NCBI GenBank assembly: GCA_049997795.1
Contig: JBEKVT010000001.1
Coordinates: 173,222 to 237,221 of the forward strand
Length of the DNA: 64,000 bases
Direction of reading: 5' to 3'
Source: Minisyncoccia bacterium
GTDB taxonomy: Bacteria; Patescibacteriota; Minisyncoccia; Phycocordibacterales; PALSA-1337
In this document: one piece after another, positions 11,112 through 50,549 of the stretch
How positions within the stretch are numbered: the stretch's first letter is position 1
How the letters are laid out: the number at the start of each line of letters is the position of its first letter
Notes under the pieces: model-generated
Database searches by the model: none
Told to the model about the DNA's origin: nothing
Seen by the model: the letters and a program-made list of their open reading frames with translations, nothing else
Program-made: the position numbers and the translations under genes

Positions 11112-11167
11112 GTGCGTCCATAGTAGCGCACATAGGAAAAAAGCGGAAACTGTAGTAGAATCTTCCC

Positions 11168-13163: not shown

Positions 13164-13931
13164 TCACCTCATGACAAGCTCTATCGGGCAATGGTCAGAA
13201 CCCATGATTTGGTCAAGGATCCTGGTTTTATCAACCCTTGGAAGCAGGCCCAGACTTACGAAAAAGTAGTCGATCCGCCAGCCGATATTGCGGTCTCTGG
13301 CGAACGTCTTCATGTCCCAGTATGTGTATTTGTCTTCGGCGGCAGGGTAAAAATGCCGGAAAACATCGACGTAGCCGGCGGCGAGCACGCCGTCTATCCA
13401 GGCCCGTTCGACCGGCAGGAAGCCGGTGTTCTCCTCATTCTCTTTCGGCCTTGCCAAATCGATCTCTGTGTGGGCCGTATTCACGTCCCCGCAGAATATG
13501 ACTTCATGTCCTTTTGCTCGCAGCCCATTGATGTACTTCAGAAATTCATCGTAATATCGGAGTTTGAAATCAAGCCGGTCTGGACCGCCGCCGCCATTCG
13601 GAAAATATATGTTCACGAGGACAAAATCTTTGAAAAACGAGGTCAAGGCGCGTCCTTCCTGGTCGTATTTCTCTATACCCAGGCCGTACTCGACTTTTTC
13701 CGGTTCGGTCTTCGAATACATGGCCACGCCGCTGTAACCTTTCTTATGTTTGGAGTGGTCGAAGTATGAAAAATAGCCGGGAGGGTTGCGGACGCCTTCC
13801 TCAAGCTGGTCCGCCTCGGCTTTGACTTCCTGGATACAATAAATATCGGGCGACTGGTTAAGGAACCAGTCAAAACCGCCCTTTTTGACGTTCGCCCGCA
13901 GACCGTTCACGTTCCAGGAGATGATCCTCAT
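13164..13931 (-). CDS. xth: exodeoxyribonuclease III (AP endonuclease)
   Basis: MRIISWNVNGLRA, IYCIQEVK and C-terminal SDHCPI motifs of the ExoIII/APE1 family. Confidence 0.9.
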   Translation of the reverse strand: MRIISWNVNGLRANVKKGGFDWFLNQSPDIYCIQEVKAEADQLEEGVRNPPGYFSYFDHSKHKKGYSGVAMYSKTEPEKVEYGLGIEKYDQEGRALTSFFKDFVLVNIYFPNGGGGPDRLDFKLRYYDEFLKYINGLRAKGHEVIFCGDVNTAHTEIDLARPKENEENTGFLPVERAWIDGVLAAGYVDVFRHFYPAAEDKYTYWDMKTFARDRNIGWRIDYFFVSLGLLPRVDKTRILDQIMGSDHCPIELVMR

Positions 13932-13952
13932 GTTGTTGATTATATCAATTAA

Positions 13953-14882: not shown

Positions 14883-14959
14883 ATTGTATCATGGCCCTAA
14901 TAAACGGAATATTCACGGTCAGTTGCACAAAAACGCTATTCGTGCTATTGTTATAAATC

Positions 14960-19667: not shown

Positions 19668-20031
19668 CATGAATAAGAAAGACACTGAACGGTTCAGGGC
19701 GATCCTCTTCGCCGAGAAAGCGCAGCTCGAAGAGGAGCTCGCCGGCGTCGGCAAGCGCGACCGCCAGAATCCAGACGGATGGGACGCCACGAGCGGCGGC
19801 ATGGACATCGATTCGGCCGATGAGAACGAGGTGGCGGACAAGCTCGAGGAGCTGGAAGACAACAGCGGCATCATCACCAAGCTCGAAAGCCAGCTGAACG
19901 AGGTCACGGCCGCCCTTGGCCGCATCGAAAAGGGCACGTACGGGACATGCGAGGTCTGCGGGAAGCCGATCGAGATGGAGCGGCTGGAAGCCAACCCGTC
20001 CGCCAGAGCGTCCATAAAACACGGCCATTAG
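19668..20031 (+). CDS. DksA/TraR-family C4 zinc-finger protein
   Basis: 120 aa with coiled-coil and CEVCGKPIEMERLEANP motif (CxxC-x17-CxxC type). Confidence 0.7.
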
Positions 20032-21719: not shown

Positions 21720-22849
21720 GGATCGACGAACGGGTTGAAGGCCCCGCGGATCTCGAAATGGACATGGGGGCCGGTGGTCATGCCGGTCATGCCGATCCAG
21801 CCGATCGTCTCTCCTTGAGCCACTTCCTGGCCGACGCTGACAGCGGTCCTCGACATGTGCGCGTACAGCGTCTCGACCCCGTTCGGGTGCGAGATCATCA
21901 TGAAGTTGCCGTAACCGCCGTTCCACAGCCCGTTGGATTTGTTGACAATGACGATGCCTGACGCCGAAGCTTGAATGGGGGTGCCGTAGGCGATGGCTAG
22001 GTCGACGGCATTGTGGCCGTGCAAGCCCTGGCTCAAACGCGCGCCCGGCACCGGACAGACGAAATAGCCAGGATAAGACGGCCAGTTCCAGACGGCGTCG
22101 AGGAGCGGCTCGAAAGAAGGCACTCCAGATTTCTGGCGCGACAGCGACAAGAAATACACAGCCTCGCTCGCCGACGGCTTGCCATGAGGGATGATGAGCT
22201 GCTCTCCGGCAGCGATGGTGGACGAGGCCGTCGAAAGGCCGTTGTAAGCCGTGATGTCATCTAGGCTGATATTGTATTTTTTAGAGATCTTCTGGAGTGA
22301 ATCGTTCGACTGGACCGTGTAGAGCACGCCGGAAACTGGCAGGATGATCAGGCTCTGCCCGGGTCTGATGGTGTTCCCGGAGAGGTGGTTAGCCTGTCTT
22401 ATGGTGTCGACCGAGATGTCGAACATGTCCGCGATCCCCGAGAGAGTGTCGTCCTCTTGCACCACATACGTGCTGATCTGGGTATTCGGCGGCTCGATGT
22501 TGGATGCGCTGTCGTAGACGGCCAAATCGGCAGACAGAGCCAGGCCGTCGCCGGAAACGGGCATCGTCGACGATGCCCACAGGTCTGCTAGAGAGTAGGG
22601 GTTCGCCGGCCCATGGAGGACATCTATGGTAGCCGACGTCAGATAATCCGAGCCGATACGGGAAGAGCCCGTGCTCGCCGAGACCGGAGCTCCGGAGAAT
22701 GACGAGAACAAGGACGAAAGAAGGCCGGCATGAACGGTCTTCGAGAAAATGAGAGCGGCAGACAAGCAGATGACGGCAAGAATCGCAACCGGGGCGAGGC
22801 GCTTAAAAGAAAAAGGATATTGATTTTTGCCTGACGGATTTGATTGCAT
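21704..22849 (-). CDS. LysM-domain M23 family metallopeptidase (peptidoglycan endopeptidase)
   Basis: two LysM repeats (YVVQEDDTLSGIADMF..., YTVQSNDSLQKISKKY...) and C-terminal M23 motifs HNAVDLA ... GPHVHFEIR; start placed at the internal Met giving a signal anchor (MQSNPSGKNQ...), because the longer ORF would overlap uvrD. Confidence 0.8.
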   Translation of the reverse strand: MQSNPSGKNQYPFSFKRLAPVAILAVICLSAALIFSKTVHAGLLSSLFSSFSGAPVSASTGSSRIGSDYLTSATIDVLHGPANPYSLADLWASSTMPVSGDGLALSADLAVYDSASNIEPPNTQISTYVVQEDDTLSGIADMFDISVDTIRQANHLSGNTIRPGQSLIILPVSGVLYTVQSNDSLQKISKKYNISLDDITAYNGLSTASSTIAAGEQLIIPHGKPSASEAVYFLSLSRQKSGVPSFEPLLDAVWNWPSYPGYFVCPVPGARLSQGLHGHNAVDLAIAYGTPIQASASGIVIVNKSNGLWNGGYGNFMMISHPNGVETLYAHMSRTAVSVGQEVAQGETIGWIGMTGMTTGPHVHFEIRGAFNPFVDPAMCR

Positions 22850-24978: not shown

Positions 24979-25803
24979 ATGATGGCCGTGATGGATGTCA
25001 GACCGAAAAAGTCGCTCGGCCAGCATTTCCTGAATTCGCCGGCCGCGATCGCGAAGATAGTCGAAGCTGCCAGAATAGTGCCGGGTGAAACCGTCTTAGA
25101 GATAGGCCCGGGTACCGGAGTTTTGACGGATGCCTTGCTTAAGGCCGGGGCACGAGTCGTCGCTGTGGAAAAAGATGTTCGCTCTTTCGAATTCCTGAAA
25201 GAAAGATTCTCAAAAAATATTGCTGACGGGGCATTGGCCCTGCATCAGACAGACATTTTAAAAACGGATCGCACCGGCCTCGGATTGAAAGATGCCTCGT
25301 ACGCTGTGGTGGCCAATATCCCTTACTACATAACCGGCGCCATCCTCGAATCGTTCCTGGAATACGAGCCGCGGCCCGATAGGATGGTCTTGTTGGTCCA
25401 AAAAGAGGTGGCCGAACGTATCGTCGCTAAGAATAAAAAAGAGGGTGTCCTTTCTATATCGGTGAAGGCCTTCGGTACGCCTCGGATCATTTCAAAAGTC
25501 CAGCGCGGGGCTTTCACGCCACCGCCAAAGGTAGATTCGGCCATATTAGCCATCGCTGGCGTATCCGACCAGAATTTCAAGCAAAATGGCCTTGAAATAA
25601 GGCGTTTTTTTGAGGTCATCAAGGCCGGGTTCGCTCATAAAAGGAAGCTTGTAAGGCGTAATCTGGAGGGCACCGCGAGCACACCAAAAATTAGCCGCGC
25701 TTGGAAAAAATTAAGCCTGGATGAAAAACTCCGGGCTGAGGATATGACGCTTGAAGATTGGCTAGGTATCGCTAAAGAGACGCAGAACCCACCTTGGGGG
25801 TAA
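24979..25803 (+). CDS. rsmA: 16S rRNA (adenine1518/1519-N6) dimethyltransferase
   Basis: LGQHFL start motif and SAM-binding GPGTGVLT. Confidence 0.9.
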   Translation: MMAVMDVRPKKSLGQHFLNSPAAIAKIVEAARIVPGETVLEIGPGTGVLTDALLKAGARVVAVEKDVRSFEFLKERFSKNIADGALALHQTDILKTDRTGLGLKDASYAVVANIPYYITGAILESFLEYEPRPDRMVLLVQKEVAERIVAKNKKEGVLSISVKAFGTPRIISKVQRGAFTPPPKVDSAILAIAGVSDQNFKQNGLEIRRFFEVIKAGFAHKRKLVRRNLEGTASTPKISRAWKKLSLDEKLRAEDMTLEDWLGIAKETQNPPWG

Positions 25804-26764
25804 TCACTCCCTCAACCGGGGCGGGGTAACAGTAAGGTGCGACTCCCATGTAACACAGCGGAGTTGATGGAGAATACGTGCCAAGAAGCCACGGGGTTGC
25901 CGGTATGTTATACGAGAGAAACGCCTGGGAAAACGGCACATATGCTAGAGAAGCTACATATGACGGAGGTAGCGGTGATATTGTAGTCCACCATGTGGCG
26001 CTGCACGTGCAAGGAAGAGCATAGACGAGGCTGCCGCCAAACGGCACGCCCGTGAATGCCGATGCTTGTTCAGGAGTGAATATCTTACCAAGCACTGCGG
26101 TTATGTTCGTCAGTATTACAGCAAACAAAGAATCGGGCTGGTCAGACGAGATAGCTTTTTTCCCCACCAGTCCTATGAACTCATGCTTTAAATCAGTCGT
26201 TGTGGCGATCTCCTTCATGACTTGGTCCTTGATGATGGCAACGGTTTGCGGGGACATGCCCTGTTTTGCCGAGACCTTGTCTATTGTAGCCAAAAATTTG
26301 TCTAGATTGACCAAGTTAGGATTGCCTACGGCTACCGAGTCTGTTGGGAGGAAAGCCGAGGACGTGGTTGATACGACGGCCCCAACCGATGAGCCTGGCG
26401 CAGTTTCTAAACCTGAAAGTACGGCCGCGGTGGAGGGCCCAACGATCCCCGTTCCGGCGCTGAGGCTGTTCGGCATTAAGATTTCTTGTTGATATTTATC
26501 CTGGAAACGCGTGACTGCGTCTTTTGTAAGTTGTCCAAAGTAGCCTGTTTCTTGGCCGGGAGAGCCTGGGCCGGCATTCGCTATCCTGGTCGTGAGATCG
26601 TTGTTCAAAACTTCCTGCAATTGGCGGACGTCTTCACCAGATACGCCGATCCTGAGCGTCCTTGTGAAAGACAGTTCTGCCGCCATGGCTCTCTGGACGT
26701 GCGCGGCATCCAAAAGCACGCACAGGACGACTGCCGCGATGATTGTGTGTGAGATTTTCATCAT
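25772..26764 (-). CDS. secreted protein with putative peptidoglycan-binding domain
   Basis: signal peptide MMKISHTIIAAVVLCVLL; PG_binding_1-like segment LRIGVSGEDVRQLQEVLN...GYFGQLTKDAVTRFQ; 3' end overlaps the rsmA end by about 30 nt. Confidence 0.5.
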   Translation of the reverse strand: MMKISHTIIAAVVLCVLLDAAHVQRAMAAELSFTRTLRIGVSGEDVRQLQEVLNNDLTTRIANAGPGSPGQETGYFGQLTKDAVTRFQDKYQQEILMPNSLSAGTGIVGPSTAAVLSGLETAPGSSVGAVVSTTSSAFLPTDSVAVGNPNLVNLDKFLATIDKVSAKQGMSPQTVAIIKDQVMKEIATTTDLKHEFIGLVGKKAISSDQPDSLFAVILTNITAVLGKIFTPEQASAFTGVPFGGSLVYALPCTCSATWWTTISPLPPSYVASLAYVPFSQAFLSYNIPATPWLLGTYSPSTPLCYMGVAPYCYPAPVEGVITPKVGSASL

Positions 26765-26771
26765 TGGCGTG

Positions 26772-26780
26772 ATTATATCA
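26772..26780 (-). promoter_or_regulatory. extended -10 (TGaTATAAT on the minus strand) 7 nt upstream of the 26764 start
   Basis: reverse complement of attatatca; divergent partner of the 26821-26829 promoter. Confidence 0.45.
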
Positions 26781-26805
26781 TGTTCTGTTAACAACCTTGC
26801 GCCCA

Positions 26806-26821
26806 AAATACGGCCGTATTT
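26806..26821. promoter_or_regulatory. 16-bp perfect palindrome AAATACGGCCGTATTT (candidate operator)
   Basis: self-complementary 16-mer abutting the TGcTATAAT -10 of the T4SS-like operon promoter, and lying between two divergent leaderless promoters. Confidence 0.45.
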
Positions 26822-26829
26822 GCTATAAT
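26821..26829 (+). promoter_or_regulatory. extended -10 TGcTATAAT, 12 nt upstream of the ATG at 26842
   Basis: tttGCTATAATctacccggcactATG; no Shine-Dalgarno in the gap. Confidence 0.5.
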
Positions 26830-26841
26830 CTACCCGGCACT

Positions 26842-27684
26842 ATGGCCGCTTACCCGCGCAAACAGACTGTGGTGATTTTTATCCTATGTGCCCTTGCTGT
26901 CGGTGGCATAGCTTTCTACGTCTACGGAGGATTCACGGTCACCGGGACCAGCTCGGGGCGTCAGTCTGGGGTTGCAACTGCCGCGGTTCAGAATCTGTCG
27001 ACCTCTAATGTCGATTGGCAAAAACAGTTTTTGGGCGCGGCTGCAAACACAAGCGCCTTCAAGGCAACGGGGACCATGGTCGCATCCAAAAACGACGCGG
27101 GCCTGACCGCCGTCGATGACCTGGGGAGAAATTTTTTCACCAAGTATGCCGAGTTGCGCCAGTCTGGCTTGACGACCGATCCACAGACTGTGAACGATGC
27201 TATGGGACAGGTCGCCTCGCAGGCCGTTAGTGAGTTGTCCGGGCCAAAGGTCTACTCGTTGAAAGACATCGTGATTGGCGGGAACAGCAGAACTGTCACA
27301 AGCGCCTATGGCAACGCTGTGGTGTTGGTCTTCAGAGACTATATGCCCAAACAAAATGAGGCAGTGGTGGCCCAACAGGCCTTCGACGATAACGATATGA
27401 GCGAGTTAGCACAAATCAATCCGATCATTTCAAGCTACAAGGATGCGATATCGCTGCTCATTAAGATACCGACGCCACAACCGCTCGCTCAATACCACGT
27501 CAATCTGATAAATGGCTTGAGTATCGCTCTTTACAATGCCGAATCGTTCCGCCACGTAGACACCGACCCAGTGCGCGGCCTGGCGGCAGTCGGTCTGGAG
27601 ATGGTGTGGCTGAAGGATGTCTCTCTGGCGATCGCGGATATCCAAAATTACTTCATCGGTGCCGGCATCCCTTTCGGAGTATGA
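26842..27684 (+). CDS. hypothetical membrane-anchored protein, first gene of the T4SS-like operon
   Basis: N-terminal anchor QTVVIFILCALAVGGIAFYVYGG, remainder hydrophilic; start chosen at MAAYPRK (track ORF from 26797). Confidence 0.45.
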   Translation: MAAYPRKQTVVIFILCALAVGGIAFYVYGGFTVTGTSSGRQSGVATAAVQNLSTSNVDWQKQFLGAAANTSAFKATGTMVASKNDAGLTAVDDLGRNFFTKYAELRQSGLTTDPQTVNDAMGQVASQAVSELSGPKVYSLKDIVIGGNSRTVTSAYGNAVVLVFRDYMPKQNEAVVAQQAFDDNDMSELAQINPIISSYKDAISLLIKIPTPQPLAQYHVNLINGLSIALYNAESFRHVDTDPVRGLAAVGLEMVWLKDVSLAIADIQNYFIGAGIPFGV

Positions 27685-27696
27685 TCATAAGATAAG

Positions 27697-29253
27697 ATGA
27701 CCACTTCACTTCAAAGACACAGCAATAAGACAAAAGGCATTCTTGTGCTGATACTCGCCGTGGTCTTTCTATTCTATGGAGCGAGAGAGAACCAGGTCAG
27801 CGCCCAAGTGAAAGAGAATCCAGCCACCGTTCCTATCGGCACCGGCTGGGATCCGAATTCAATCATGGCCGACATGAAAAACTTCATCCTGGACAAGCTT
27901 GCTTCCACGGTCGCCAAACAGATTCTTCAACAAATGACCGTCGCCACCATCAATTGGATCAATTCCGGTTTCAACGGCAGCCCGGCCTTCCTGACCAATC
28001 CGGAAGGATTCTTCCTGGATACCGCCGACCAGATCACGGGAGCGATGATAGCCGAGAGCGGGCCGCTCCAAAAGCTCTGTTCGCCGTGGAACGTAGACAT
28101 CAGGCTGTCGCTGGCCCTCCTGCAGACCCAGCCCTTGTCTCAACGTTACATATGCACTCTGAGCACTGTCATCAACAATGCCAGCAACGCGACGATAGGC
28201 GGCCACAGCATCCAAGGCTTCGTGAGGGGAGATTTCTCTCAGGGCGGCTGGCCGGCCTTCATATCCATGACAACCGAGCCGCAGAATAATCCTTACGGGA
28301 TCTATCTCCAGGCCCATAGCGACATCTTGAGCGCCGTCGGAGCGAAACAGTCGTTCATCAACCAAGATCTGTTACAAGGTCACGGGTTCTTGTCATGGAA
28401 GAGCTGTAAGAACGTGCAGGTCTCGGCTCTGGACGCCAATCAAGCTATTTTTGGCAGCGCGTCCGTGCTCGGCAGTTCCGGCAACACCAGCGACAACAAC
28501 GGGTCGGTATTGCAGACCGTCCAACAGTGCGAGACCGAGACTCCAGGTTCCGTCATAGAGAACTCCCTTGCCGAGCACCTCGGCACCGGCGTAAGGGAGC
28601 TCGAGCTGGCCAACGACATAAATTCCGTCGTCAACGCCCTGGTCTCGCAGCTAGTCAGCCAGATGCTGACCAAAGGCCTGCGCTCTCTGAGTGCTGGCGG
28701 TTCCGGCCTAAGCGGCAACGGCTTGAGCAGCCTGAATTCATACACTTCCCAGTTACAAGCTGACGCCACGGCGCAAAAAAGCGTGCCGAATGTGGCGTCG
28801 ACTGGGTTCGGCTCGTCGTCTTCGGCCGAGTCGACATATGACCAGGCGATTGGCCTCATCACCGATAGCAAGGACCGCTACGAGACCGCTCGGTCGTGTT
28901 TCACCAACAAGCCAGATTACGCGGCCGCTCCCAGCGCATATAGCGCGGTCCTTGCCATAGACAACACCGTAGAGACCAGCATCGATCCCCTTCTCACGAA
29001 CCTCGCGGCCAAACGAGCAAGCGTCGCCAGCGCCCCAGAGAGCCCGGCCACCCTGAGCGTCTCCGCTACGACCGACATCGGCCAGCTGGTCGAATCCCAA
29101 ACGCAGATCGTCAACGACGCAGTCTCGCAAGGCCAAGCGAGCTCCGACCAGGCGGCGGCAGCGGCGACGGATCTGGAAAATGCCCAGACCCAAGCCCAGG
29201 CGTTCAACCAGGACGCTGCCAGATACCAGTCTGAATGCGATTCCATGCAATAA
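27697..29253 (+). CDS. hypothetical large secreted protein
   Basis: 518 aa, signal peptide GILVLILAVVFLFYGARENQVSAQ; Ser/Thr/Gln/Ala-rich; no identifiable catalytic motif. Confidence 0.45.
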   Translation: MTTSLQRHSNKTKGILVLILAVVFLFYGARENQVSAQVKENPATVPIGTGWDPNSIMADMKNFILDKLASTVAKQILQQMTVATINWINSGFNGSPAFLTNPEGFFLDTADQITGAMIAESGPLQKLCSPWNVDIRLSLALLQTQPLSQRYICTLSTVINNASNATIGGHSIQGFVRGDFSQGGWPAFISMTTEPQNNPYGIYLQAHSDILSAVGAKQSFINQDLLQGHGFLSWKSCKNVQVSALDANQAIFGSASVLGSSGNTSDNNGSVLQTVQQCETETPGSVIENSLAEHLGTGVRELELANDINSVVNALVSQLVSQMLTKGLRSLSAGGSGLSGNGLSSLNSYTSQLQADATAQKSVPNVASTGFGSSSSAESTYDQAIGLITDSKDRYETARSCFTNKPDYAAAPSAYSAVLAIDNTVETSIDPLLTNLAAKRASVASAPESPATLSVSATTDIGQLVESQTQIVNDAVSQGQASSDQAAAAATDLENAQTQAQAFNQDAARYQSECDSMQ

Positions 29254-29258
29254 AGCCG

Positions 29259-31196
29259 ATGAAAAAGCACTTGCCGCGCATAATCTGTATCTTCTCTCTC
29301 TCCACCTTGATCGTCGGGGTGTTCGGCCACGTGGCGCAGGCACAGTCCATCATCAGCAGCGTGCTCGGCTACGGCAACTTCGCCGCCCTTTTTGCCGAAG
29401 TCGTCGCCACGTTCATGAACTGGCTGATCACGGGCATGAGCGTCCTATTGGCCCTGGCCGGCTATCTCCTCAATTTCTCCATAAACCTCACTCTGAACAT
29501 CAAGAGCTTCGTGGACAGCTCCCCCGCCATATACAACACCTGGCGGGCCATCAGGGACATCAGTGACATGTTCATCATCTTCGTCCTTCTGTACGCCGCC
29601 ATCAGGCTCATCTTGGGCTTCGACGCCAAGTTCGGCTCGCTCATCAAGAACATCGTCGTCGCCGGCGTGCTCATAAATTTCAGCTTCTTCTTCGCCGGCC
29701 TGGGCATCGACGCCTCGAACATCATATCCGTACAGCTCTACAACGCCATCGCGCCGGCCAACAGCCTGAACGCCGGCACAGTGAGCTCGAACATGTTCCA
29801 AGGCAGCTTCACGACCGGTCTTGACGGCGGGCTGTCGGACGTCTTCATGAGCTCGCTGAAGATCCCGGCCCTGTATAACGAGAGCCTCACGGACCAGTCG
29901 GCCGCGAGCAAGACGGTGAGCGGGAATACCATCGGGGCGGGCACGGTTTCGGCGCCGCTCAAGATATTCCTCATGGGGGTAGTGGCGCTCGTGATAGAGC
30001 TGACCGCTACCCTGAGCTTCGCCGTGGCGGCCCTCGCCTTCGTCATCAGGTTCGTGATACTCCTATTGCTCCTGGCTTTCTCGCCGATATGGTTCGCCTC
30101 TCATGTGGTGCCAATGACGGCGGAATACGCCAAGAAATGGGTCAGTGCCTACAAGGGCATGCTCATCTTCATGCCGGCTTATCTCCTGCTCATGTATCTA
30201 GCCCTGAACGTCCTCACCACCAGCCCGCTTTTCGGCACCCTGAACAGCGCGGGGGCGCTGGGGAACGGGAAGTGGTACAGCGACTTCCTCGTCCTCGGCG
30301 TCAACGCCGCCATCGTCATCATCCTACTGAACGCGCCTCTGGTCGCCGCCGCCTCGATCGCCGGCACCTCGATCCCGCTCCTCGACAAGGCCGCCAAGAG
30401 CATCGGAGCTAGAGCGATATGGGGCAGGGTCGGGGGGTTTGCCGGGACGCACACCGCGGGCGCCTGGGCCGGCAGACTGGACAAGGGCCTCGCCGGTACG
30501 TGGGCCGGGAATACCCTGCTTGGAAGGGATATAAGGGATGTGACTACCGGCCCTCTGGCCAAGAGCAGGATGGGCGGAGTCCGTTCTTATGAGGAGAGGG
30601 TCACCGCCAGGAAAGAGGTGACTAAGAAGGCCAAGGAAATAGAGCACGGCGAAAGATTGGACAGCCTTCTAGACGAGGTCAAGGCCGGCAAGCCGATGAA
30701 GATCGACCCTGTCACTGGCAAACCCATGATAATGTCGATCATCGGGCAGATGAATGAGAAAGAGAAGCTGGCATTCATCGGGAAGAATGTCAAGGACGAG
30801 GCGGCTCTCAAGGAGATAATCAAACATGTCAAATCGTCAGACTTCGAGGCCGTCAAAAAATCAGACGATCTCCTGGATGAAGAGAAGATAAAGATCGCTA
30901 ACATGCGCAAGGACGCCTTGAACGACGCCCTCAGTAAACACCAGGCTGAAGCAATAAAGAACATGCTGGATAATATGGACGGCAAGGAGCTGCTGAAGCT
31001 TGGCGGCGGCACCTTGATACTCGATGAGGTGATCGGCAACTTGAAACCGAGCCAACTCAAGAATATGGCTGACGAGGGGCTGGATGACACGACAAAGCGC
31101 GTCATTGGGGGCGCGATAGATACGTGGCTCACTGCTCACGGAACTCCTCATCGCGCCAGAGGATATGTGAACAAGAATAGAGCCGAATGGACATGA
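29259..31196 (+). CDS. VirB6/TrbL-like polytopic membrane protein with long charged C-terminal domain
   Basis: signal peptide MKKHLPRIICIFSLSTLIVGVFGHVAQAQS, then at least 6 hydrophobic helices (e.g. LLMYLALNVLTTSPLFG), then a 250-aa Lys/Glu-rich coiled-coil-like tail; sits just upstream of the VirB3-like and VirB4 genes as in Gram-positive T4SS operons. Confidence 0.5.
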   Translation: MKKHLPRIICIFSLSTLIVGVFGHVAQAQSIISSVLGYGNFAALFAEVVATFMNWLITGMSVLLALAGYLLNFSINLTLNIKSFVDSSPAIYNTWRAIRDISDMFIIFVLLYAAIRLILGFDAKFGSLIKNIVVAGVLINFSFFFAGLGIDASNIISVQLYNAIAPANSLNAGTVSSNMFQGSFTTGLDGGLSDVFMSSLKIPALYNESLTDQSAASKTVSGNTIGAGTVSAPLKIFLMGVVALVIELTATLSFAVAALAFVIRFVILLLLLAFSPIWFASHVVPMTAEYAKKWVSAYKGMLIFMPAYLLLMYLALNVLTTSPLFGTLNSAGALGNGKWYSDFLVLGVNAAIVIILLNAPLVAAASIAGTSIPLLDKAAKSIGARAIWGRVGGFAGTHTAGAWAGRLDKGLAGTWAGNTLLGRDIRDVTTGPLAKSRMGGVRSYEERVTARKEVTKKAKEIEHGERLDSLLDEVKAGKPMKIDPVTGKPMIMSIIGQMNEKEKLAFIGKNVKDEAALKEIIKHVKSSDFEAVKKSDDLLDEEKIKIANMRKDALNDALSKHQAEAIKNMLDNMDGKELLKLGGGTLILDEVIGNLKPSQLKNMADEGLDDTTKRVIGGAIDTWLTAHGTPHRARGYVNKNRAEWT

Positions 31197-31864
31197 ATAT
31201 GAACCCACAAGAAGTACCAGAGACAATCAAGAGGTTGGCCGATGACCCGAAGATATATGACGCGATAGAAAAAATCGGGGACAAATTCGACCTGCACATC
31301 GATCAGATCGGGGACCTGGATGCGGAGGTGCGCAGGGTCATACTCGGCATAAGCAAGCCGACTGAGTTCATAAAAAACATCGCTAAGCTGCTGGAGATCG
31401 ACCAAGACAAGGGGGGGCGGATAGCTGAAGAGATAAACAAAGACGTAATTCAATCTATAAGATCCGAGCTGCAGTCACAGACATCGGATAACAGAGCCGC
31501 CGATAACCTATCTCCCATCGAGCGCGCTGGCGGTTTCGAGATAGAGCGGGAACCGGCGAAAAACGCCTCAGACGAGAAGGCCCGGGCCATGACGGAGACC
31601 CAGAAGATAAACATGCTCTCGGACATCGAGAGTCCGACGCCCATCAGGAAGGCGGTCCCGCAGGGCGAAGAGACCTTGAAGACGCTGCAGGGCGAAGAGA
31701 TCAGAAGGGAGCCTTTGGTAGATAGGCTTCTCAAGAATCCTTTGTCCCTTCCGGAGGAAAAGGTCGAGGGGGTCCCGGAAAGGGCACCGGCAGCGAGACC
31801 AGCGCCGAAGGCGGAGCCGCCGCGCAACCTGCCGACGAACGATCTTTATAGGGAGCCCGTCTGA
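31193..31864 (+). CDS. hypothetical acidic soluble protein
   Basis: start overlaps the preceding stop (ATGA); Asp/Glu-rich, no TM segments. Confidence 0.4.
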   Translation: MNMNPQEVPETIKRLADDPKIYDAIEKIGDKFDLHIDQIGDLDAEVRRVILGISKPTEFIKNIAKLLEIDQDKGGRIAEEINKDVIQSIRSELQSQTSDNRAADNLSPIERAGGFEIEREPAKNASDEKARAMTETQKINMLSDIESPTPIRKAVPQGEETLKTLQGEEIRREPLVDRLLKNPLSLPEEKVEGVPERAPAARPAPKAEPPRNLPTNDLYREPV

Positions 31865-31892
31865 CGGCCGCTTTTTGGGCATTGGCTGCCTC

Positions 31893-31903
31893 TGCGGTAT
31901 AAT
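31893..31903 (+). promoter_or_regulatory. -10 element TATAAT 11 nt upstream of the ATG at 31915
   Basis: ctgcggTATAATagaaggccaagATG. Confidence 0.4.
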
Positions 31904-31914
31904 AGAAGGCCAAG

Positions 31915-32349
31915 ATGCGCTTCCAAGTCCCTCAATTCATCGAGGTCGAAGACAGGATCTTCGGGCCGCTCACTCTGAAACAATTCATATATCTGGCCGG
32001 GGGCGGCGGGCTTTCTTTCCTCGTATACGTCCTCGTCGGGAACATCGCCATAGCCATCCTTCCTATCCTCGTCATCATGGGGGGCGTATCGGCCTTGGCG
32101 TTCTATAAGGTCAACAACAAGCCCCTGATCGGCGTCCTGGAGTCGGCTTTCAAATACTGGCTCGGGGGCAAATTGTACATCTGGAAGAAAGAGGCCCGGC
32201 AGCCGCCGACCACGGCCGAAGCCGCAGCCAAGGACGTCAAGAGCTTCGCCTCGGTCATGGTGCCGAAGATCTCCGACAGCAAGCTGAAGGACTTGTCATG
32301 GAGCCTGGATATCAAAGAGAGCATATATTCGAGCAAGGATCAAAAGTGA
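31915..32349 (+). CDS. PrgI/TcpE-like (VirB3-like) small T4SS membrane protein
   Basis: N-terminus MRFQVPQFIEVEDRIFGPLTLKQFIYLAGGGG followed by two TM helices; matches the PrgI-family pattern of Gram-positive conjugation systems; stop overlaps the next start (TGATG). Confidence 0.55.
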   Translation: MRFQVPQFIEVEDRIFGPLTLKQFIYLAGGGGLSFLVYVLVGNIAIAILPILVIMGGVSALAFYKVNNKPLIGVLESAFKYWLGGKLYIWKKEARQPPTTAEAAAKDVKSFASVMVPKISDSKLKDLSWSLDIKESIYSSKDQK

Positions 32350-32993
32350 TGGCCAAGACCCAAGACACAACCCAGGATTTCGTGCCGATCCAGGAGATCC
32401 GCGACGGCGTGGTCATCCTGAAAGACGGCGGCATGCGCGCCATCATCCTGGCGACTTCCCTCAATTTCGCCCTGAAATCGGGTGATGAGCAGAGCGCCAT
32501 CCTGCTCCAGTTCCAGAATTTCCTGAACTCGCTGGACTTCTCCATCCAGATCTTCGTCCAGTCGAAGAAGCTCGACATCCGCCCCTACATCGCCCTCCTC
32601 GAAGACCGATACAAAGAGCAGGTGACTGAGCTCATGAAGATCCAGGTCCGCGAGTACATCGAGTTCATCAAGACCTTCGTGGAATCCACCAATATCATGT
32701 CTAAGAGCTTCTTCGTGGTCATACCGTATGACCCGCCGATACTATCGAACAAGAAGAACCCTCTTTCAGGCGTCTTTGGCGGCAAGAAGAAGGGCGGAGC
32801 GGGAGCCGCGGCCTCGCTCGACCAGCAATTCCAGGAATATCGGGGCCAGCTCGAGCAGCGCGTGGCGGTGGTCGAACAGGGCCTGGTGCGATGCGGCATC
32901 AGGGCGGCCGAGCTCGGCACCGAAGAGGTGGTGGAGCTATTCTATAAGATCTTCAATCCCGGCGAGACCGAGAAGCCTATACAGATAACATGA
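32349..32993 (+). CDS. virB4: VirB4-family ATPase, N-terminal domain fragment (split gene)
   Basis: DFVPIQEIRDGVVILKDGGMRAIILATSLNFALKSGDEQSAILLQFQNFLNSLDFSIQIF resembles the N-terminus of Gram-positive VirB4 homologues (ConE/PrgJ/TcpF type); ends with ATGA overlap onto the next ORF in another frame. Confidence 0.6.
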   Translation: MAKTQDTTQDFVPIQEIRDGVVILKDGGMRAIILATSLNFALKSGDEQSAILLQFQNFLNSLDFSIQIFVQSKKLDIRPYIALLEDRYKEQVTELMKIQVREYIEFIKTFVESTNIMSKSFFVVIPYDPPILSNKKNPLSGVFGGKKKGGAGAAASLDQQFQEYRGQLEQRVAVVEQGLVRCGIRAAELGTEEVVELFYKIFNPGETEKPIQIT

Positions 32994-34804
32994 GCATATT
33001 CTCGAAATTATTCGGCAAAAAGGCGCCTTCGCCCATCGTCTCGGTCCTCCCCGAAGAGATATATCAGGCTGGGGTCTTGGAATTGAAGGACGTCATCGCC
33101 CCGTCGGCCCTGAAGGTGAGCCCCAAGGACGTCAACCTGGGCGAGAAGGTCGGCCGGACGCTCTTCGTCATCTCATATCCGCGCTTCCTGGACGAGAGCT
33201 GGTTCGCGCCGATTATAAATCTCGACAAGGTCTTCAACGTCTCCATATTCATCCATCCCGTCGACACCGCCAAGATCCTTCGCCACTTCCAGAAGAAGGT
33301 CGCTGAGGTCCAGAGCCAGATATCGAGAAGGGAAGAGAAGGGCTTGGTCAGGGACCCGGCCCTCGACACCGCCTATCAGGACCTGGAGACCCTTCGCGAC
33401 CAGCTGATGCAGGCCCAGGAGCACCTTTTCGACGTCGGCGTCTACATAACCATCTTCGCCGACTCCGAGAACGAGCTAGACAAGCTGGAGTCGGAGATCA
33501 AATCAATCCTCGAAGCCAAGCTGGTCTATCTGAAACCGGCCTTGTTCCAGCAGGAGCAGGGCTTCAAGAGCGTCATCCCGATCGGCGATGACCAGCTGGC
33601 GGTCCATTCAAAATTGAATTCCTCGCCCCTCTCGAGCGTCTTCCCGTTCGTGTCCTTCGATCTGACTTCCAACAAGGGCATCCTTTACGGCATCAACCGC
33701 CACAACTCCTCGCTGGTCCTCTTCGATCGTTACTCCCTGGAGAACTATAATTCGGTGACCTTTGCCGTGGCCGGCGCCGGTAAATCCTACTGCACAAAGC
33801 TCGAGATCCTCCGCACTCTTATGTTCGACGGCGATGTCCTGGTCATCGACCCTGAGAAGGAATATGAGTACATGTCGGAGGCCACCGGCGGCAAGTATTT
33901 CAACATCTCCCTCAATTCCGAGCATCATATTAACCCGTTCGACCTGCCGGCCGTGGCCGAGGACGAATCCGCCGCAGACGTCTTGCGCTCGAACATCATC
34001 AACCTGGTCGGCCTCTTCCGCATCATGTTGGGCGGCCTTTCCCAGGAAGAAGACGCCATCATCGACCGGGCCATCACCGAGACTTACGCCCTGAAAGACA
34101 TCACCGCCGAATCAAATTTCCAGAGCGTGGAGCCGCCGCTCCTGTCCGACTTCGAGATGGTCCTCGCGGGGATGGAGGGCGCGGACTCGCTGGTCCAGCG
34201 CCTGACCAAGTACACCAAAGGCACGTGGTCCGGCTTCATCAACCGCCCGTCCAACATCGACATCAACAACAAATTCATCGTCTTCTCGCTCCGCGACATG
34301 GAAGACGAGCTCAAGCCGGTGGCTATGTACATCGTCACCCATTACATCTGGAACGCCGTCCGAAGGGTCAGGAAGAAGAGGCTTCTGGTCATAGATGAGG
34401 CTTGGTGGATGATGAAATCAGAAGACACGGCCTCGTTCCTGTTCAGCCTGGCCAAGCGGGGCCGCAAATACTATCTGGGCTTGGCCACCATCACCCAAGA
34501 CGTGGATGACTTCTTGAGGTCCCCGTACGGCCTGCCGATCCTCACGAACTCGTCCATCCAGATACTCTTGAAGCAATCGCCGACGATCATCGACCATATC
34601 CAGAAGACATTCAATCTGACCGATGAAGAGAAGTACCTGCTCCTCGAATCCGACGTCGGCGAGGGCATCTTCTTCGTCGGCCTGAAGCATGTGGCCATCC
34701 AGATCCGCGCCTCGTACACCGAAGACCAAATCATAACCACCAATCCGGCCCAGGTCATGCAGATCGAGCAGGCCAAGAGGGACCTCGAGCAGGCCGGGGG
34801 CTGA
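32990..34804 (+). CDS. virB4: VirB4-family T4SS ATPase (C-terminal AAA domain-containing part)
   Basis: Walker A AVAGAGKSYCTKLE, Walker B LLVIDEAWWMM, downstream GLATITQD; 604 aa. Confidence 0.8.
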   Translation: MSIFSKLFGKKAPSPIVSVLPEEIYQAGVLELKDVIAPSALKVSPKDVNLGEKVGRTLFVISYPRFLDESWFAPIINLDKVFNVSIFIHPVDTAKILRHFQKKVAEVQSQISRREEKGLVRDPALDTAYQDLETLRDQLMQAQEHLFDVGVYITIFADSENELDKLESEIKSILEAKLVYLKPALFQQEQGFKSVIPIGDDQLAVHSKLNSSPLSSVFPFVSFDLTSNKGILYGINRHNSSLVLFDRYSLENYNSVTFAVAGAGKSYCTKLEILRTLMFDGDVLVIDPEKEYEYMSEATGGKYFNISLNSEHHINPFDLPAVAEDESAADVLRSNIINLVGLFRIMLGGLSQEEDAIIDRAITETYALKDITAESNFQSVEPPLLSDFEMVLAGMEGADSLVQRLTKYTKGTWSGFINRPSNIDINNKFIVFSLRDMEDELKPVAMYIVTHYIWNAVRRVRKKRLLVIDEAWWMMKSEDTASFLFSLAKRGRKYYLGLATITQDVDDFLRSPYGLPILTNSSIQILLKQSPTIIDHIQKTFNLTDEEKYLLLESDVGEGIFFVGLKHVAIQIRASYTEDQIITTNPAQVMQIEQAKRDLEQAGG

Positions 34805-34809
34805 CGACG

Positions 34810-35457
34810 ATGGCCTCGCGCATAGGAAAAGGGGAATGGATCGCCTTGTATGCCGCAACCGGCGCGATCGATCTCATCCAGTTCCTGATCGATTTCACCG
34901 GCGTCGGCGCCGGGGTGAACGAGGCCGCCGATCCGTTCATTGGCGTCGCTCTCGGCGGCTACTTCCAGCTGCGCGGAGTCTCGATGATCAAAAATATCAG
35001 CCGCCTCATGTCGCTTCTCGGCGTCGTCGGGTTGGAGGAAGTGACTTTCGGGGTCGCACCGGCCTGGGTCGTGGACACGTGGTACATCCACAAGACCGTG
35101 CGCCAAGAGAAAGTGGAACAAGAGGAGCAAGAACAGGGCGAGGCCGTAACTTTGAACGTGGCCGATCGGCCCTTGAATCAAGATGGTCGGCGTGAGCCAT
35201 CAGCAGACGGCTCCAAGCCGAGCCGCAACCAAGGTCTCCAACCGCTCAATGTGGACGGTGTAAGGTCACCAAGACCGTCATTGAGTTCGACAATAGGCTC
35301 GGCCGAGTTCAAATCACGGACGGAGAAAGAGATTCAGGATAAAACATATATTCAGGCCAAGTTGAGGGGCTATACTGAGGAACAAGCGACTGAACAGGCG
35401 ACAAACGCAACAAAACCTGATTATAAACAGGTCTGGAAGGCACACGGCGACAGTTAA
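34810..35457 (+). CDS. hypothetical membrane protein
   Basis: 215 aa, 2-3 hydrophobic helices in the N-terminal half, hydrophilic Glu/Gln-rich tail. Confidence 0.4.
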   Translation: MASRIGKGEWIALYAATGAIDLIQFLIDFTGVGAGVNEAADPFIGVALGGYFQLRGVSMIKNISRLMSLLGVVGLEEVTFGVAPAWVVDTWYIHKTVRQEKVEQEEQEQGEAVTLNVADRPLNQDGRREPSADGSKPSRNQGLQPLNVDGVRSPRPSLSSTIGSAEFKSRTEKEIQDKTYIQAKLRGYTEEQATEQATNATKPDYKQVWKAHGDS

Positions 35458-35493
35458 CCGTGCATAACCCGATATCACAGGAGTCTGATTATC

Positions 35494-35502
35494 TGATAAA
35501 AT
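35494..35502 (+). promoter_or_regulatory. internal extended -10 TGaTAAAAT 7 nt upstream of the ATG at 35510
   Basis: tctGATAAAATacagccaATG. Confidence 0.35.
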
Positions 35503-35509
35503 ACAGCCA

Positions 35510-36556
35510 ATGAATCGGTCCGTTCTTCTCTTCAAAACCGTTTTGTTGGTCATGGCTATCTCAGCCGTGGCGGCTTCGGCGGCCTTCGCCCAGGGCATCC
35601 CGACGACCATAGGTGGCCTGGAGCTCACAGCCTCGTCCGACAGCCCGGCCCCGGGCCAGTCAGTGACCATCACGGCCGCGAGCTACAGCGTCGATATCAA
35701 CGCCGCGAATCTGGTTTGGACGGCTGGCGGTAAGACGATAGCCAAGGGAGTCGGTGTAACAAGCGTCACGGTCCAGGCCCCGGCCTTGGGCAAGCGGCTC
35801 AAGGTGAACGTGTCGGCGGTCGCCTCGGACGGGACCTCCTTTAATAGTTCCGTAGTCATAGGCTCCGGCGCAGTGGACCTCATAATCGAGCCTGACGGTT
35901 ATGCGCCTCCCTTTTTCAAAGGAAAGCTGCCTGTGGTATACCAGAATGCCGTTAAGGTCACCGCCGTGCCCCATCTCGCCAATTCTTCGGGGGTCGAGTA
36001 CGACCCCAAGACCTTGGTGTACAAGTGGCAACAGGGTGATTCGGTATTGCAAGACCAGTCTGGATACGGCAGGCAATCGGTCGTTATACAGGGCGGCATC
36101 ATCCCGCGGGCCTATACTCTGACGGCCACAGTGACGACCCGCGACGGCAGTACGCAAGGGATGGGACTAACCACGGTATCTTTCGGACCTCCATCCCTAA
36201 TTTTCTACAGGAACGATCCATTGTACGGGCCTCTTTTCAACAACGCCATAGGGAACAGTATATATCTGGGAACCCAGCGCGAGGCTGGCGTCCTCGCAGT
36301 ACCTTACGGCTTCGGCCTGCCGGCGTCTGGCCTCGGCGATTTGTCGCTCGCTTGGTTCATCAACGGCAAGGAGCATCCGGAGTTGGCGTCGGGCGATTCC
36401 GTCACCCTGCGCGCGCCGGACAATTCGGCTGGGTCGTCGAACATCGAGCTGGACGTCGACAATAAGATCGACATCCTCCAACAGGCCAGTGCCATATTCC
36501 AGGCGGTGTTCAACGCCGCGGCGAGCACTACCTCGCAGTCGCCGGTGACTTTTTAA
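35510..36556 (+). CDS. hypothetical secreted beta-rich protein
   Basis: signal peptide MNRSVLLFKTVLLVMAISAVAASAAFAQG; repetitive beta-strand-like segments (VTITAASYSVDINAANLVWTAGG, VTVQAPALGKRLKVNVSAVASDG), suggestive of Ig-like folds. Confidence 0.45.
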   Translation: MNRSVLLFKTVLLVMAISAVAASAAFAQGIPTTIGGLELTASSDSPAPGQSVTITAASYSVDINAANLVWTAGGKTIAKGVGVTSVTVQAPALGKRLKVNVSAVASDGTSFNSSVVIGSGAVDLIIEPDGYAPPFFKGKLPVVYQNAVKVTAVPHLANSSGVEYDPKTLVYKWQQGDSVLQDQSGYGRQSVVIQGGIIPRAYTLTATVTTRDGSTQGMGLTTVSFGPPSLIFYRNDPLYGPLFNNAIGNSIYLGTQREAGVLAVPYGFGLPASGLGDLSLAWFINGKEHPELASGDSVTLRAPDNSAGSSNIELDVDNKIDILQQASAIFQAVFNAAASTTSQSPVTF

Positions 36557-36607
36557 TCAAATTCCGTGGACAATTCTCATCTCAAATCAATCGTCAAGGG
36601 GGGCCTT

Positions 36608-38053
36608 ATGGCCGCGGCTCTTTTGGCGCTAGCGTTAATGACCCCGCTGGCGGCCTCAGCACAAACGGCATCGTCTGGTGTGACGTCATTTTCAGCAGAA
36701 CCATTAACTTTACCGACAACTCCTTCTCCACAGACAGCGCCATCCTCACTAACAACATTACCACCAGCAACGTTATCTTTACCCGCAACACCTTCTTCTG
36801 TGACGCCGTTTTCGGCAGCACCATTAACCTTGCCAACCTTATTGCCCACGGCGCCTTCACAAAACAACCCAGTAAACAACCCGGCGGCGCCGACGTATAC
36901 CCCCCTCGAGCCGTTGCCGTGCATCCCCACAGGGAGCAGCACCTCTTGCACGAGTGGCGGAGTAACTTACACCAGGGGAAGTTCGATGAGCAGCGTCGAT
37001 TTTCAGGGCTATATCCAATACATGTTCAACCTGGCCATCGCCGTGGCGGCGGCCGCGGCTGTATTCATGATCGTCTTCGGCGGCTTCCAGTATATGACCA
37101 CCGACTCGTGGCAAGGGAAGAGCGCCGGGTTGGATAAGGCCAGGAACGCCGTCTATGGCCTTCTTTTGGTGCTCGCCTCATACCTCATCCTGCGGACCAT
37201 TGATCCGCGCCTGGTGGCCATCCCGAGCACTTTGGTGGCGCCGCTCAACATCAATTATGGGGGCCTGACCACGTCCGAGAGCCTTCTTTCCACGATAGCA
37301 AGCGACGCCAATCAATACTTATCTCAAGACAAGCAGTTCATGGGCGACGCCGCGGCGACGCAAAGCAAGATAACCGACCTGGAATCTCAGAAGACAGCTC
37401 TGGAAAACAAGATATGTTCGGCTCCAGGAAACTCTTGTCCTGGAGGCCCGGACGTCGCCAACCAGATGTGCAGTGACGCGATCTCCAACAAAGACGACCC
37501 TATCTATAATGATTGCGTGGCCCTGGCAAAGCTCAACGATCAGGAAGGCGGGCTCAAAGGAACGCTGTGGACTGAGACTGCGCAACATCTCATGGCCGGC
37601 AATCTGAGCGCGTGCTTCTCGACCGGCGGCGCCCAGTCGGACCCATCCGCCCAAGCGGACGCCTGTCATAAAATGATCAATGATTGGGCTAATACCTACA
37701 GCGGTCTGTCGACCGGGGCGGGACAATCGGCTCAAATGATAAGCGACTACGCCGCCTACGCGAACGCCATCATCGATATCCAAAAAACTATCCTGGCCTA
37801 TAACCCCGGCGCGGCCTCGACAATCAACACACTTGAGAACATCCAGAGTATAGCGTCCCTCGGCGCATCGAAGGCCTTAGGGACGAACACCATCGTCAGT
37901 TGGCTGTTACCTAACAGCTTGACTACCTCCGGGACCGTCAAGGGCATACAATCCATAGCGGACAAGACGACCATTCAGGACCCGTCCTTGAGAGCCCAAT
38001 TCGTCAGCCAAGTGCAGGCGTATGAGGCGCAGCTCAACGGCGGCAGAAAATGA
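36608..38053 (+). CDS. secreted protein with tandem Pro/Ser/Thr repeats and a VirB2/TrbC-like two-helix hydrophobic hairpin (candidate pilin)
   Basis: start chosen at the ATG preceded by the Shine-Dalgarno AAGGGGGG; signal peptide MAAALLALALMTPLAASAQT; two roughly 40-aa repeats (VTSFSAEPLTLPTT / VTPFSAAPLTLPT); hairpin YMFNLAIAVAAAAAVFMIVFGG-FQYMTTDSWQGKSAGLDKARN-AVYGLLLVLASYLIL. Confidence 0.4.
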   Translation: MAAALLALALMTPLAASAQTASSGVTSFSAEPLTLPTTPSPQTAPSSLTTLPPATLSLPATPSSVTPFSAAPLTLPTLLPTAPSQNNPVNNPAAPTYTPLEPLPCIPTGSSTSCTSGGVTYTRGSSMSSVDFQGYIQYMFNLAIAVAAAAAVFMIVFGGFQYMTTDSWQGKSAGLDKARNAVYGLLLVLASYLILRTIDPRLVAIPSTLVAPLNINYGGLTTSESLLSTIASDANQYLSQDKQFMGDAAATQSKITDLESQKTALENKICSAPGNSCPGGPDVANQMCSDAISNKDDPIYNDCVALAKLNDQEGGLKGTLWTETAQHLMAGNLSACFSTGGAQSDPSAQADACHKMINDWANTYSGLSTGAGQSAQMISDYAAYANAIIDIQKTILAYNPGAASTINTLENIQSIASLGASKALGTNTIVSWLLPNSLTTSGTVKGIQSIADKTTIQDPSLRAQFVSQVQAYEAQLNGGRK

Positions 38054-39366
38054 AAAAAACAAACCTCATCATATTGATAGCCGTGATCGTCTTCGTCCTC
38101 GTCGCAGCCGGAGGGACGTACTGGTTCTTCTTCATGCAAGCCCCGGCTCCGACTACGACCGGAACCGGCGGGACGGGCCAGTCCGGCTTCCAGCCCTTCG
38201 GCAGGACGACACCGTTCGGGGGCGGCTCGAATACAAATGCGACCGGCACGAGTACCGGTAACCAGAATTACAATGGTTGGGTACCGGGGGCTCCGTTCAA
38301 GCTTCCGATCTTGCGCTTGCTTTCCGACACGCCGATCGGCGGCTACGGCGCTTCGACCACTGCCTCGACTACCGTGGTGCGCTGGGTCGATCGGGGGAGA
38401 GGAAATGTGTATGAAGCGACGTATGATTCGCCGCTCATCACGACCATCTCCAACACCGTCGTGCCAAGGATATACGAGAGTATGTGGAACAAGAACTTAA
38501 CGGCCTTCATAGGCTCGCTCCTCCCGGACGGCGATCGGGCGCCAACGAACGTATATGCCCAGATCGTCGCCCATTCGACTTCGACCGGGGCCATGACGAG
38601 CACTGGAAGCGCATCTGGGAACGCCTCCGTCACGCCATTCGAACTGCGGGGCAAAAATCTGCCGACCGGCCTCATCGGCTACGCCGTCTCGCCAGACAAG
38701 AGCAAGCTATTCATGCTCATAAACCAGAATGGTAACGGCGTTGGGTATGTCTCGACCTTCGATGGTCAGAAGACGGCCGCGATCTTCACGTCCCCGCTCA
38801 CTGAGGTCAATGTCGACTGGCCGACGGATAACGCAATCGCCATAACCACCAAAGGATCGTCCGTCTATGACGGTTTCCTCTACCTGGTCAATCCGAAGAC
38901 TGGTGTATGGAAAAGAGCCGTCGGGCCGCTCCCGGGACTCAGCGCTTCGGTGAGCCACGATGGTAAATATGCTCTTGTCTCGTCGGCGGACGGCAACAAC
39001 GGAATCTCGACGAGCATATACTCTCTGGCCTCCGGCACTTCCGCAAACGCCGCAATCCATACCTTGGCTGACAAGTGCGCGTGGGGTAATTTCTACAAAG
39101 ACACGGTGTACTGCGCGGTGCCGTCGCAGGCTGTCACCGGAGCTTATCCGGAAGACTGGTACGCCGGCACGCTTTCGACCATCGACAAGATATGGCAGCT
39201 TGACGCCTTGACGGGAGGGGTCCGCCTGGTCTCCTCGATCACGGGCCAATCTGACCGTGTCGTCGATGCCTTCAACCTCGGCCTGGACGCCAAGGACGGC
39301 TACCTCTTCTTCATGAACAAGGATGACTTGTCTTTCTGGTCGCTGGACCTCGTGCGATCGCAATAG
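38050..39366 (+). CDS. membrane-anchored beta-propeller-like protein
   Basis: N-terminal anchor LIILIAVIVFVLVAAGGTYWFFF; Gly/Thr-rich linker; repeated segments resembling PD40/TolB-type blades (DGKYALVSSADGNNGISTSIYSL); start overlaps the previous stop (ATGA). Confidence 0.45.
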   Translation: MKKTNLIILIAVIVFVLVAAGGTYWFFFMQAPAPTTTGTGGTGQSGFQPFGRTTPFGGGSNTNATGTSTGNQNYNGWVPGAPFKLPILRLLSDTPIGGYGASTTASTTVVRWVDRGRGNVYEATYDSPLITTISNTVVPRIYESMWNKNLTAFIGSLLPDGDRAPTNVYAQIVAHSTSTGAMTSTGSASGNASVTPFELRGKNLPTGLIGYAVSPDKSKLFMLINQNGNGVGYVSTFDGQKTAAIFTSPLTEVNVDWPTDNAIAITTKGSSVYDGFLYLVNPKTGVWKRAVGPLPGLSASVSHDGKYALVSSADGNNGISTSIYSLASGTSANAAIHTLADKCAWGNFYKDTVYCAVPSQAVTGAYPEDWYAGTLSTIDKIWQLDALTGGVRLVSSITGQSDRVVDAFNLGLDAKDGYLFFMNKDDLSFWSLDLVRSQ

Positions 39367-50540: not shown

Positions 50541-50549
50541 ATTATAGCA
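50541..50549 (-). promoter_or_regulatory. extended -10 TGcTATAAT (minus strand) 10 nt upstream of the pilB start
   Basis: reverse complement of attatagca. Confidence 0.45.

Follow-up and report, generated by a model that had tools for sequence, protein, structure and literature searches.

A perfect palindrome in the promoter of a Patescibacteria T4SS-like operon may be a lineage-specific form of a constrained spacer

Comparison of orthologous promoters suggests that the perfect 16-bp palindrome upstream of a T4SS-like operon in a Minisyncoccia bacterium is the form that a constrained promoter spacer has taken in one lineage, probably created by mutation, and not the operator of the operon, a reading to which we assign a probability of about one half. 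A deeply conserved promoter with an extended -10 and without a -35, with a spacer of 24 nt, would drive the T4SS-like operon of Patescibacteria. The palindrome would have arisen, probably by a single event, in the common ancestor of the window genome and its nearest relative (L001), and would since have been retained by purifying selection on the whole RNA-polymerase footprint of the promoter. The dyad symmetry would not itself be selected, nor would it serve as the general operator of the operon. The window, i.e., the whole stretch of 64,000 nucleotides that was analysed, comes from a metagenome-assembled genome (MAG) of Minisyncoccia (Patescibacteria/CPR), with the annotated proteins MGC9605358-65 on a 657-kb contig. 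A central part in the host dependence of the ultra-small Patescibacteria is ascribed to the T4SS-like machine. The palindrome is a weak lead, and perfect dyad symmetry in a promoter does not by itself make an operator; the comparison yields a testable promoter architecture, in which an extended -10 is combined with a gap fixed at 12 nt, a spacer that is clade-specific but constrained, and an upstream box peculiar to the cluster. It could be used to find the regulator, to predict co-regulated genes and to build expression tools.

The gene cluster downstream of the palindrome (26842..39366, plus strand), delimited by domain matches and synteny, is indeed T4SS-like, as had been proposed in a sequence-only reading of the window. 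Its first gene (26842..27684, plus strand, NCBI annotation) encodes a 280-aa membrane-anchored protein (MGC9605359.1), of which the N-terminus MAAYPRKQTV is conserved, at the nucleotide level too. It is followed by a VirB6/TrbL-like gene (29235-31196), a PrgI/VirB3-like gene (31915-32349), a TrsD-like gene (32298-32993), the VirB4 gene (VirB4/TraG P-loop; 32990-34804), whose ATPase product is named "VirB4-like, CD1110 family" by NCBI, and the gene of a T4SS_pilin-domain protein (36566-38053). The profile matches of the cluster (PF19044/PF12846, PF12666, PF18895 and NF041427) are those of a Patescibacteria/monoderm-type T4SS. Its end adjoins yidC-rnpA and dnaA-dnaN, with dnaA at 40641. The Patescibacteria T4SS is homologous to the monoderm conjugation machinery and has been described with the same gene arrangement (PMC12102498). 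The window shares with that description the VirB4, PrgI/VirB3 and pilin-like genes, the location beside rnpA-yidC-dnaA-dnaN and the M23/LysM hydrolase genes nearby. That paper does not analyse promoters or operators (neither "promoter" nor "operon" occurs in it), and the cis-elements of the cluster are new relative to it. On the opposite strand, the divergent gene (25772..26764, minus strand, NCBI annotation) encodes a 330-aa secreted protein with a PG_binding_1 domain (PF01471; MGC9605358.1), which some relatives have and others do not.

Both of the divergent promoters proposed for this intergenic region are borne out, by the genome-wide convention of -10 placement and by conservation in orthologues. 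The operon promoter carries the extended -10 TGCTATAAT (26821..26829, plus strand), 12 nt before the ATG at 26842, and the divergent promoter carries the extended -10 TGATATAAT (26772..26780, minus strand), which lies, as claimed, 7 nt before the ATG of the peptidoglycan-binding protein gene at 26764. In the window, TGNTATAAT occurs 7 times against 0.53 expected (13-fold enriched; 0/100 shuffles reach 7), and TGn directly upstream of a TATAAT-like hexamer, the mark of an extended -10, is non-random. The operon promoter shows no recognisable -35; TTGCGC, the only TTG-hexamer present, was rejected, being too far from the -10 (21 bp).

A TAnAAT hexamer is found 6-8 nt 5' of the ATG at a dozen or more window genes. 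Such a Pribnow box near the start codon is the pattern of the leaderless "group C" genomes (GeneMarkS-2, PMC6028130), described in a text without mention of "candidate phyla" or "Parcubacteria", the phylum of the window thus not being named there. The minus-strand gene, with its -10 at 7 nt and without a Shine-Dalgarno, fits the leaderless type. The description of both promoters as leaderless does not strictly hold for the operon gene, which is only near-leaderless. The stretch from its -10 to the ATG (26830..26841, plus strand), again without a Shine-Dalgarno, is fixed at 12 nt, and a leader of ~5 nt is therefore deduced, with a start near 26836. RNA polymerase most likely starts ~7 nt after TGCTATAAT, which would yield a near-leaderless mRNA. 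The window thus resembles extended -10 promoters and "group C" genomes in having TGn with TATAAT, no -35 and a Pribnow box 6-8 nt before the start codon, whereas the operon promoter differs from "group C" in its fixed 12-nt gap and in a conserved box at about -50..-41.

The palindrome AAATACGGCCGTATTT occupies positions 26806..26821 (no strand assigned) and is gap-free, with 8/8 pairs. Its sequence, its coordinates and its abutment on the extended -10 are as first reported; its final T doubles as the first base of TGCTATAAT. Relative to the predicted start, the dyad spans about -30..-15, and it would overlap the RNA-polymerase contact region of the orthologue-conserved promoter. Of the placement over the "-35/spacer" that had been ascribed to it, the spacer and the T of TGn are correct, but a -35 hexamer is not covered, as none is recognisable. 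Perfect palindromes of at least 16 bp number 4 in the whole window against 1.23 expected, and at least one arises in 73/100 dinucleotide shuffles. In the 6.8 kb of intergenic DNA there is 1 against 0.13 expected, with at least one in 12% of the shuffles. Because of these chance expectations the palindrome is only mildly unusual, and not compelling alone, especially as a feature picked by eye.

A palindrome is self-complementary by definition, and this one might act as a hairpin or cruciform, either as a terminator or as a structural barrier between the divergent promoters. Folded as DNA, AAATACGGCCGTATTT reaches only -2.1 kcal/mol (z = 0.09), and 92/200 shuffles fold equally well; it was not called in a terminator scan, and it is neither an intrinsic terminator nor a stable hairpin. 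It also lies upstream of both predicted starts, so no transcript should cross it. A structural role is extremely unlikely.

Thirteen orthologous upstream regions of the first gene of the operon, from 70% down to 32% protein identity, form the comparison set, and a profile search of genome contigs with a 14-sequence alignment gave 6 loci. One locus, L133, is from the same strain as the window (99.98% identity) and adds nothing to the comparison. The window and L001 are referred to as clade A, and L008, L140, L010, L137 and L012 as clade B. Of the 13 regions, 12 have the element TTGCTATAAT, which takes the form TTGCTATACT in L006; in the most distant one, L013, it has diverged. Its distance to ATGGCC is 12 nt in most, the exceptions among the compared orthologues being L134 and the diverged L013, and the arrangement of TTGCTATAAT, 12 nt and ATG is kept in orthologues down to 32% protein identity. 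The alignment shows which parts of the predicted promoter are conserved: a box upstream with the consensus TGTGAATAAC, the element TTGCTATAAT, and its spacing of 12 nt from ATGGCC. On the minus strand, TGNTATAAT is kept 5-7 nt before the ATG in L001, L002, L005, L011 and L134. This -10 has decayed where the divergent gene is absent, and ksgA there extends up to the region; in L006, L008, L010, L012, L137 and L140, which are without the PG-binding gene, the ksgA stop codon TAA lies inside the conserved TGTGAATAAC box.

When ten sequences are compared without gaps from -60 up to the ATG, the columns of the palindrome, the stretch in which the clades differ, are the least conserved. Their majority fraction is 0.4-0.7, whereas most columns in the box and in the -10 reach 0.8-0.9 or more. 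The palindrome is found only in the window and, with one mismatch, in L001 (70% protein identity), where a change of G26816 to A cuts the symmetry to 7/8 pairs and is uncompensated. At the same position, L002 (62-63%) and L005 (54-55%) carry unrelated sequence of equal length, as do all the others. Outside the window, the longest gap-free perfect palindrome of the region has 4-bp arms, and the dyad is kept only in L001. The sequence-only reading had taken the palindrome for a repressor operator and had itself named a lack of other copies, together with absence from orthologous regions, as grounds to refute that proposal. By this test the proposal largely fails, the palindrome being missing in 12 of the 13 regions, symmetry-broken in the thirteenth and without a second copy in the 64 kb of the window.

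A lineage-specific operator is a narrower alternative, which is possible although doubtful. A dimeric protein encoded elsewhere in the genome would bind the dyad at -30..-15, block RNA polymerase and repress the operon, and the spacers of other clades would carry different operators for diverged regulators. The tetO sites of TetR, the LexA SOS boxes and the symmetric lacO are palindromic repressor operators that overlap the core promoter. The window resembles them in its perfect 16-bp dyad between the -35 position and the -10, where a bound dimer would exclude RNA polymerase; it differs in having no cognate regulator or second site in the window and no conservation in orthologous promoters, which leaves it a candidate site only. 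Two points favour such an operator: the dyad is perfect, and it occupies the classic position, sharing the T of TGn. The same features speak against regarding the dyad as incidental: it sits exactly between the upstream elements and the -10, where repressors bind, and the chance expectation of 0.13 per window for intergenic DNA would be lower still for promoter spacers.

Conservation of the spacer within clades is also in favour of this operator. Between the window and L001, the spacer is identical at 23 of 24 positions, despite an identity of only 0.55-0.59 at 4-fold sites; over 26785-26904 (-57 to +62), 110 of 120 positions are identical. In clade B, the spacer TTTCGGCCTTATTTCAAGCCAAAC, 24 nt upstream of TTGCTATAAT, is identical at 17-21 of 24 positions among the compared spacers, although the synonymous (4-fold) sites are saturated (0.23-0.35 identity), and at this saturated divergence an identity of about 89% extends over the whole stretch between -56 and the ATG. 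Some clade-B spacers hold a GGCCT-N6-AGGCC dyad. The left part of the window spacer, CTTGCGCCCA (26796..26805, plus strand), is semi-conserved, with a yTTsCGCC stretch common to several clades. Judged from these alignments, the spacer is under strong clade-specific constraint, and something would appear to read this DNA in a clade-specific manner. RNA-polymerase contacts alone do not readily explain the within-clade conservation, which agrees with proteins that bind in a clade-specific manner. The clade with the palindrome is precisely the one in which the upstream box is degenerate, and this could reflect a rewiring.

However, the conservation takes in the full polymerase footprint with the 12 nt that follow the -10, as well as, in the window and L001, the first 20 codons; therefore the constraint is not specific to the dyad. 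The dyads of other clades are short and centred 6-10 nt away, without covariation, and the sole change in the L001 palindrome is the one that breaks its symmetry. The block conserved between the window and L001 extends to the synonymous sites of the first ~20 codons (MAAYPRKQTV...); recombination, an RNA structure or the needs of initiating translation on a near-leaderless mRNA might account for this. A resemblance to the clade-B spacer, GCCTTATTTCAAGGC at 25589-25603, lies inside the ksgA coding sequence and was judged coincidental. A MerR-like activator bound to the spacer would be a variant of the operator reading. Operators of the MerR type have their dyad in a 19-20-bp spacer and are served by a MerR regulator; here 21 bp separate the -10 from TTGCGC, the sole TTG-hexamer, and there is no MerR gene or domain in the window.

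Where the window has GCCCAAAATACGG, the outgroups share GCCTTTATTG. About ten changes within 12 nt, with unchanged flanks, make the stretch perfectly symmetric with GGCCGTATTT next to it. Palindromes can be created by template switching (quasipalindrome "correction") or by a small inversion, and here either event could copy the right-hand GGCCGTATTT onto the left. Such a single step would give a perfect palindrome without selection for symmetry. The likeness to quasipalindrome correction lies in the changes, which are confined to ~12 nt and render a non-symmetric spacer perfectly palindromic with the adjacent sequence while its flanks stay the same. The evidence for inversion is mixed: the reverse complement of 26802-26813 fits 6 of 10 orthologues better than the forward strand does (7-9 vs 5-6 of 12 positions), but three of the ten fit the forward strand better. 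A one-step origin by inversion or template switch is plausible, if weakly supported.

A search of the rest of the genome for the same 16-mer had been proposed as a way to define a regulon. Within these 64 kb of the ~657-kb genome, no second copy of the palindrome was found with up to 3 mismatches; it is thus single-copy there, not a repeated palindromic element (REP/MITE-like). The half-site AAATACGG, which was likewise to delimit a regulon, has 4 further occurrences in the window, a background frequency. Matches of 14/18 at 8873, upstream of the HU gene, and at 31862, inside the cluster, are at background frequency too, 12.5% of intergenic 18-mers having such a partial match. Metagenome contigs scanned for AAATACGGCCRTATTT gave at least 119 matches; those listed are all in unrelated contexts, and the locus of the window itself is not among them.

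Pfam and NCBIfam scans of the ~60 proteins of the window revealed no sequence-specific regulator, only HU and a DksA/TraR zinc finger, and the nearby HTH regulator that was to be looked for is not recognisable in the 64-kb window. The flanks of the syntenic loci likewise yielded no HTH or other domain of a transcription factor. A regulator inside the cluster was considered and rejected, since its soluble proteins without assigned function show no DNA-binding signature. The gene of the HU-type DNA-binding protein (PF00216; 8966-9238, plus strand) is missed by simple longest-ORF picking. Upstream of it, just before a TATAAT, lies CCTAAAATACGGC (8873-8885), a 12/13 match to the left side of the palindrome at background frequency. 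The DksA/TraR-type zinc-finger gene (19669-20031, plus strand; 3906-4274 in L006) lies ~7 kb upstream of the T4SS operon, in a gene order that is conserved (PNPase - unknown - DksA/TraR - comM). The DksA/TraR family acts on RNA polymerase and not on DNA, and could tune promoters without a -35.

Palindromic 6-mers such as CGGCCG are typical of restriction-modification recognition sites, and the core of the palindrome is of this kind. Methylation of CGGCCG/GGCC might then modulate promoter activity, as an epigenetic or restriction-modification target, and roughly half of the orthologues have a GGCC/RGCC tetramer 4 nt 5' of TTGC. Against this stands the frequency of these sites in the window: CGGCCG occurs 91 times and GGCC 685 times, so the core site is not special. 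Moreover, the only methylases seen in the window are the rRNA methylases KsgA and SpoU, and the AT-rich arms are left unexplained. Like the structural role discussed above, a methylation site is unlikely, and we give it very little weight.

Dedicated control of the secretion operon, which had been deduced from the palindrome, is plausible, but as a role of the conserved GTGnATAAC box rather than of the palindrome. The box (consensus TGTGAATAAC/GTGnATAAC) lies at about -50..-41, with 27-29 nt between its end and the -10 hexamer. Nine orthologous main promoters match it exactly, and in the palindrome-bearing clade the main-promoter copy is degenerate; in the window this copy, TGTTAACAAC (26786..26795, plus strand), matches at 6/8 positions and ends 28 nt before the -10 hexamer. 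A second copy is found at an internal promoter of the cluster (35460..35502, plus strand), with the box GTGCATAAC (35460-35468), 28 nt and TAAAAT (35497-35502). The ATG at 35510 follows 7 nt after this hexamer; the gene that it opens encodes 348 aa and precedes the pilin-like gene. L005, L006 and L013 share the internal box, and L012 has it in the form GTGATAAC.

In the 208 kb of the window and loci, exact GTGNATAAC occurs 13 times, always at the main or the internal promoter and never elsewhere, where a composition-based estimate for the same 208 kb gives about 4. Besides the window, box sites are located at 6666 and 15144 in L005, at 18674 in L006, at 15216 in L013, and in other loci. Among the ~20 leaderless-type promoters of the window, only the main and internal cluster promoters score above 4/8 at the box position. 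A CRP/Rex-like reading of the TGTGA in the box was dropped, as a second half-site was not seen on inspection of the orthologous regions. No paper describing the box motif or the promoters of the Patescibacteria T4SS was found.

UP elements and class I/II activator sites sit at about -40 to -60. The box resembles them in its fixed distance upstream of the -10 and its presence at two promoters of one cluster; it is unlike them in not being an A-tract and in lacking a dyad or direct repeat. Because the box is common to the main and the internal promoter of the cluster, dedicated control would more likely act through it, which makes it a better candidate than the palindrome. Box and palindrome might also act together in a two-part cis-regulatory code for the T4SS cluster of these Paceibacteria-type Patescibacteria, in which a dedicated activator reads a "T4SS box" and a clade-specific spacer operator, here the palindrome, is read by a fast-evolving repressor. 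We regard this code as unlikely; if true, it would give organisms that are thought to be nearly devoid of transcription factors a switch dedicated to their host-interaction machinery.

Several other features of the window were recorded. A 12-bp palindrome, GAGGCCGGCCTC (50555-50566), lies in the spacer of a minus-strand promoter, 5 nt upstream of TGCTATAAT (-10 at 50549..50541). This promoter belongs to the gene of a PilB-like T2SSE ATPase and is thus a second surface-machine promoter with a GGCC-centred dyad. GAGGCCGGCCTC differs from AAATACGGCCGTATTT in sequence and offset, and 12-bp palindromes are at chance frequency in the window (22 vs 20.6). The perfect 20-bp palindrome GCACCACCGATCGGTGGTGC (3245-3264) is located 21 nt into a 111-aa ORF (ATG 3224), which is preceded by the promoter-like site AATTATAAT; other palindromes of 16-20 bp lie inside coding sequence at 22559-22578 and, in dnaA, at 41009-41026. 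The stretch of about 8000-14900 may be an integrated element: its GC is lower (0.48-0.50 vs about 0.57), and four tRNA genes (10002-11111) are found there along with a gene for a tyrosine recombinase/integrase (13953-14882). Finally, TGCTATAAT is present at 61401-61409 (minus strand), 6 nt before the ATG of a 154-aa minus-strand ORF and directly downstream of tRNA-Ser (61438-61525). The long plus-strand ORF at 60975-62348, which overlaps this promoter site and the tRNA-Ser, is probably partly spurious.
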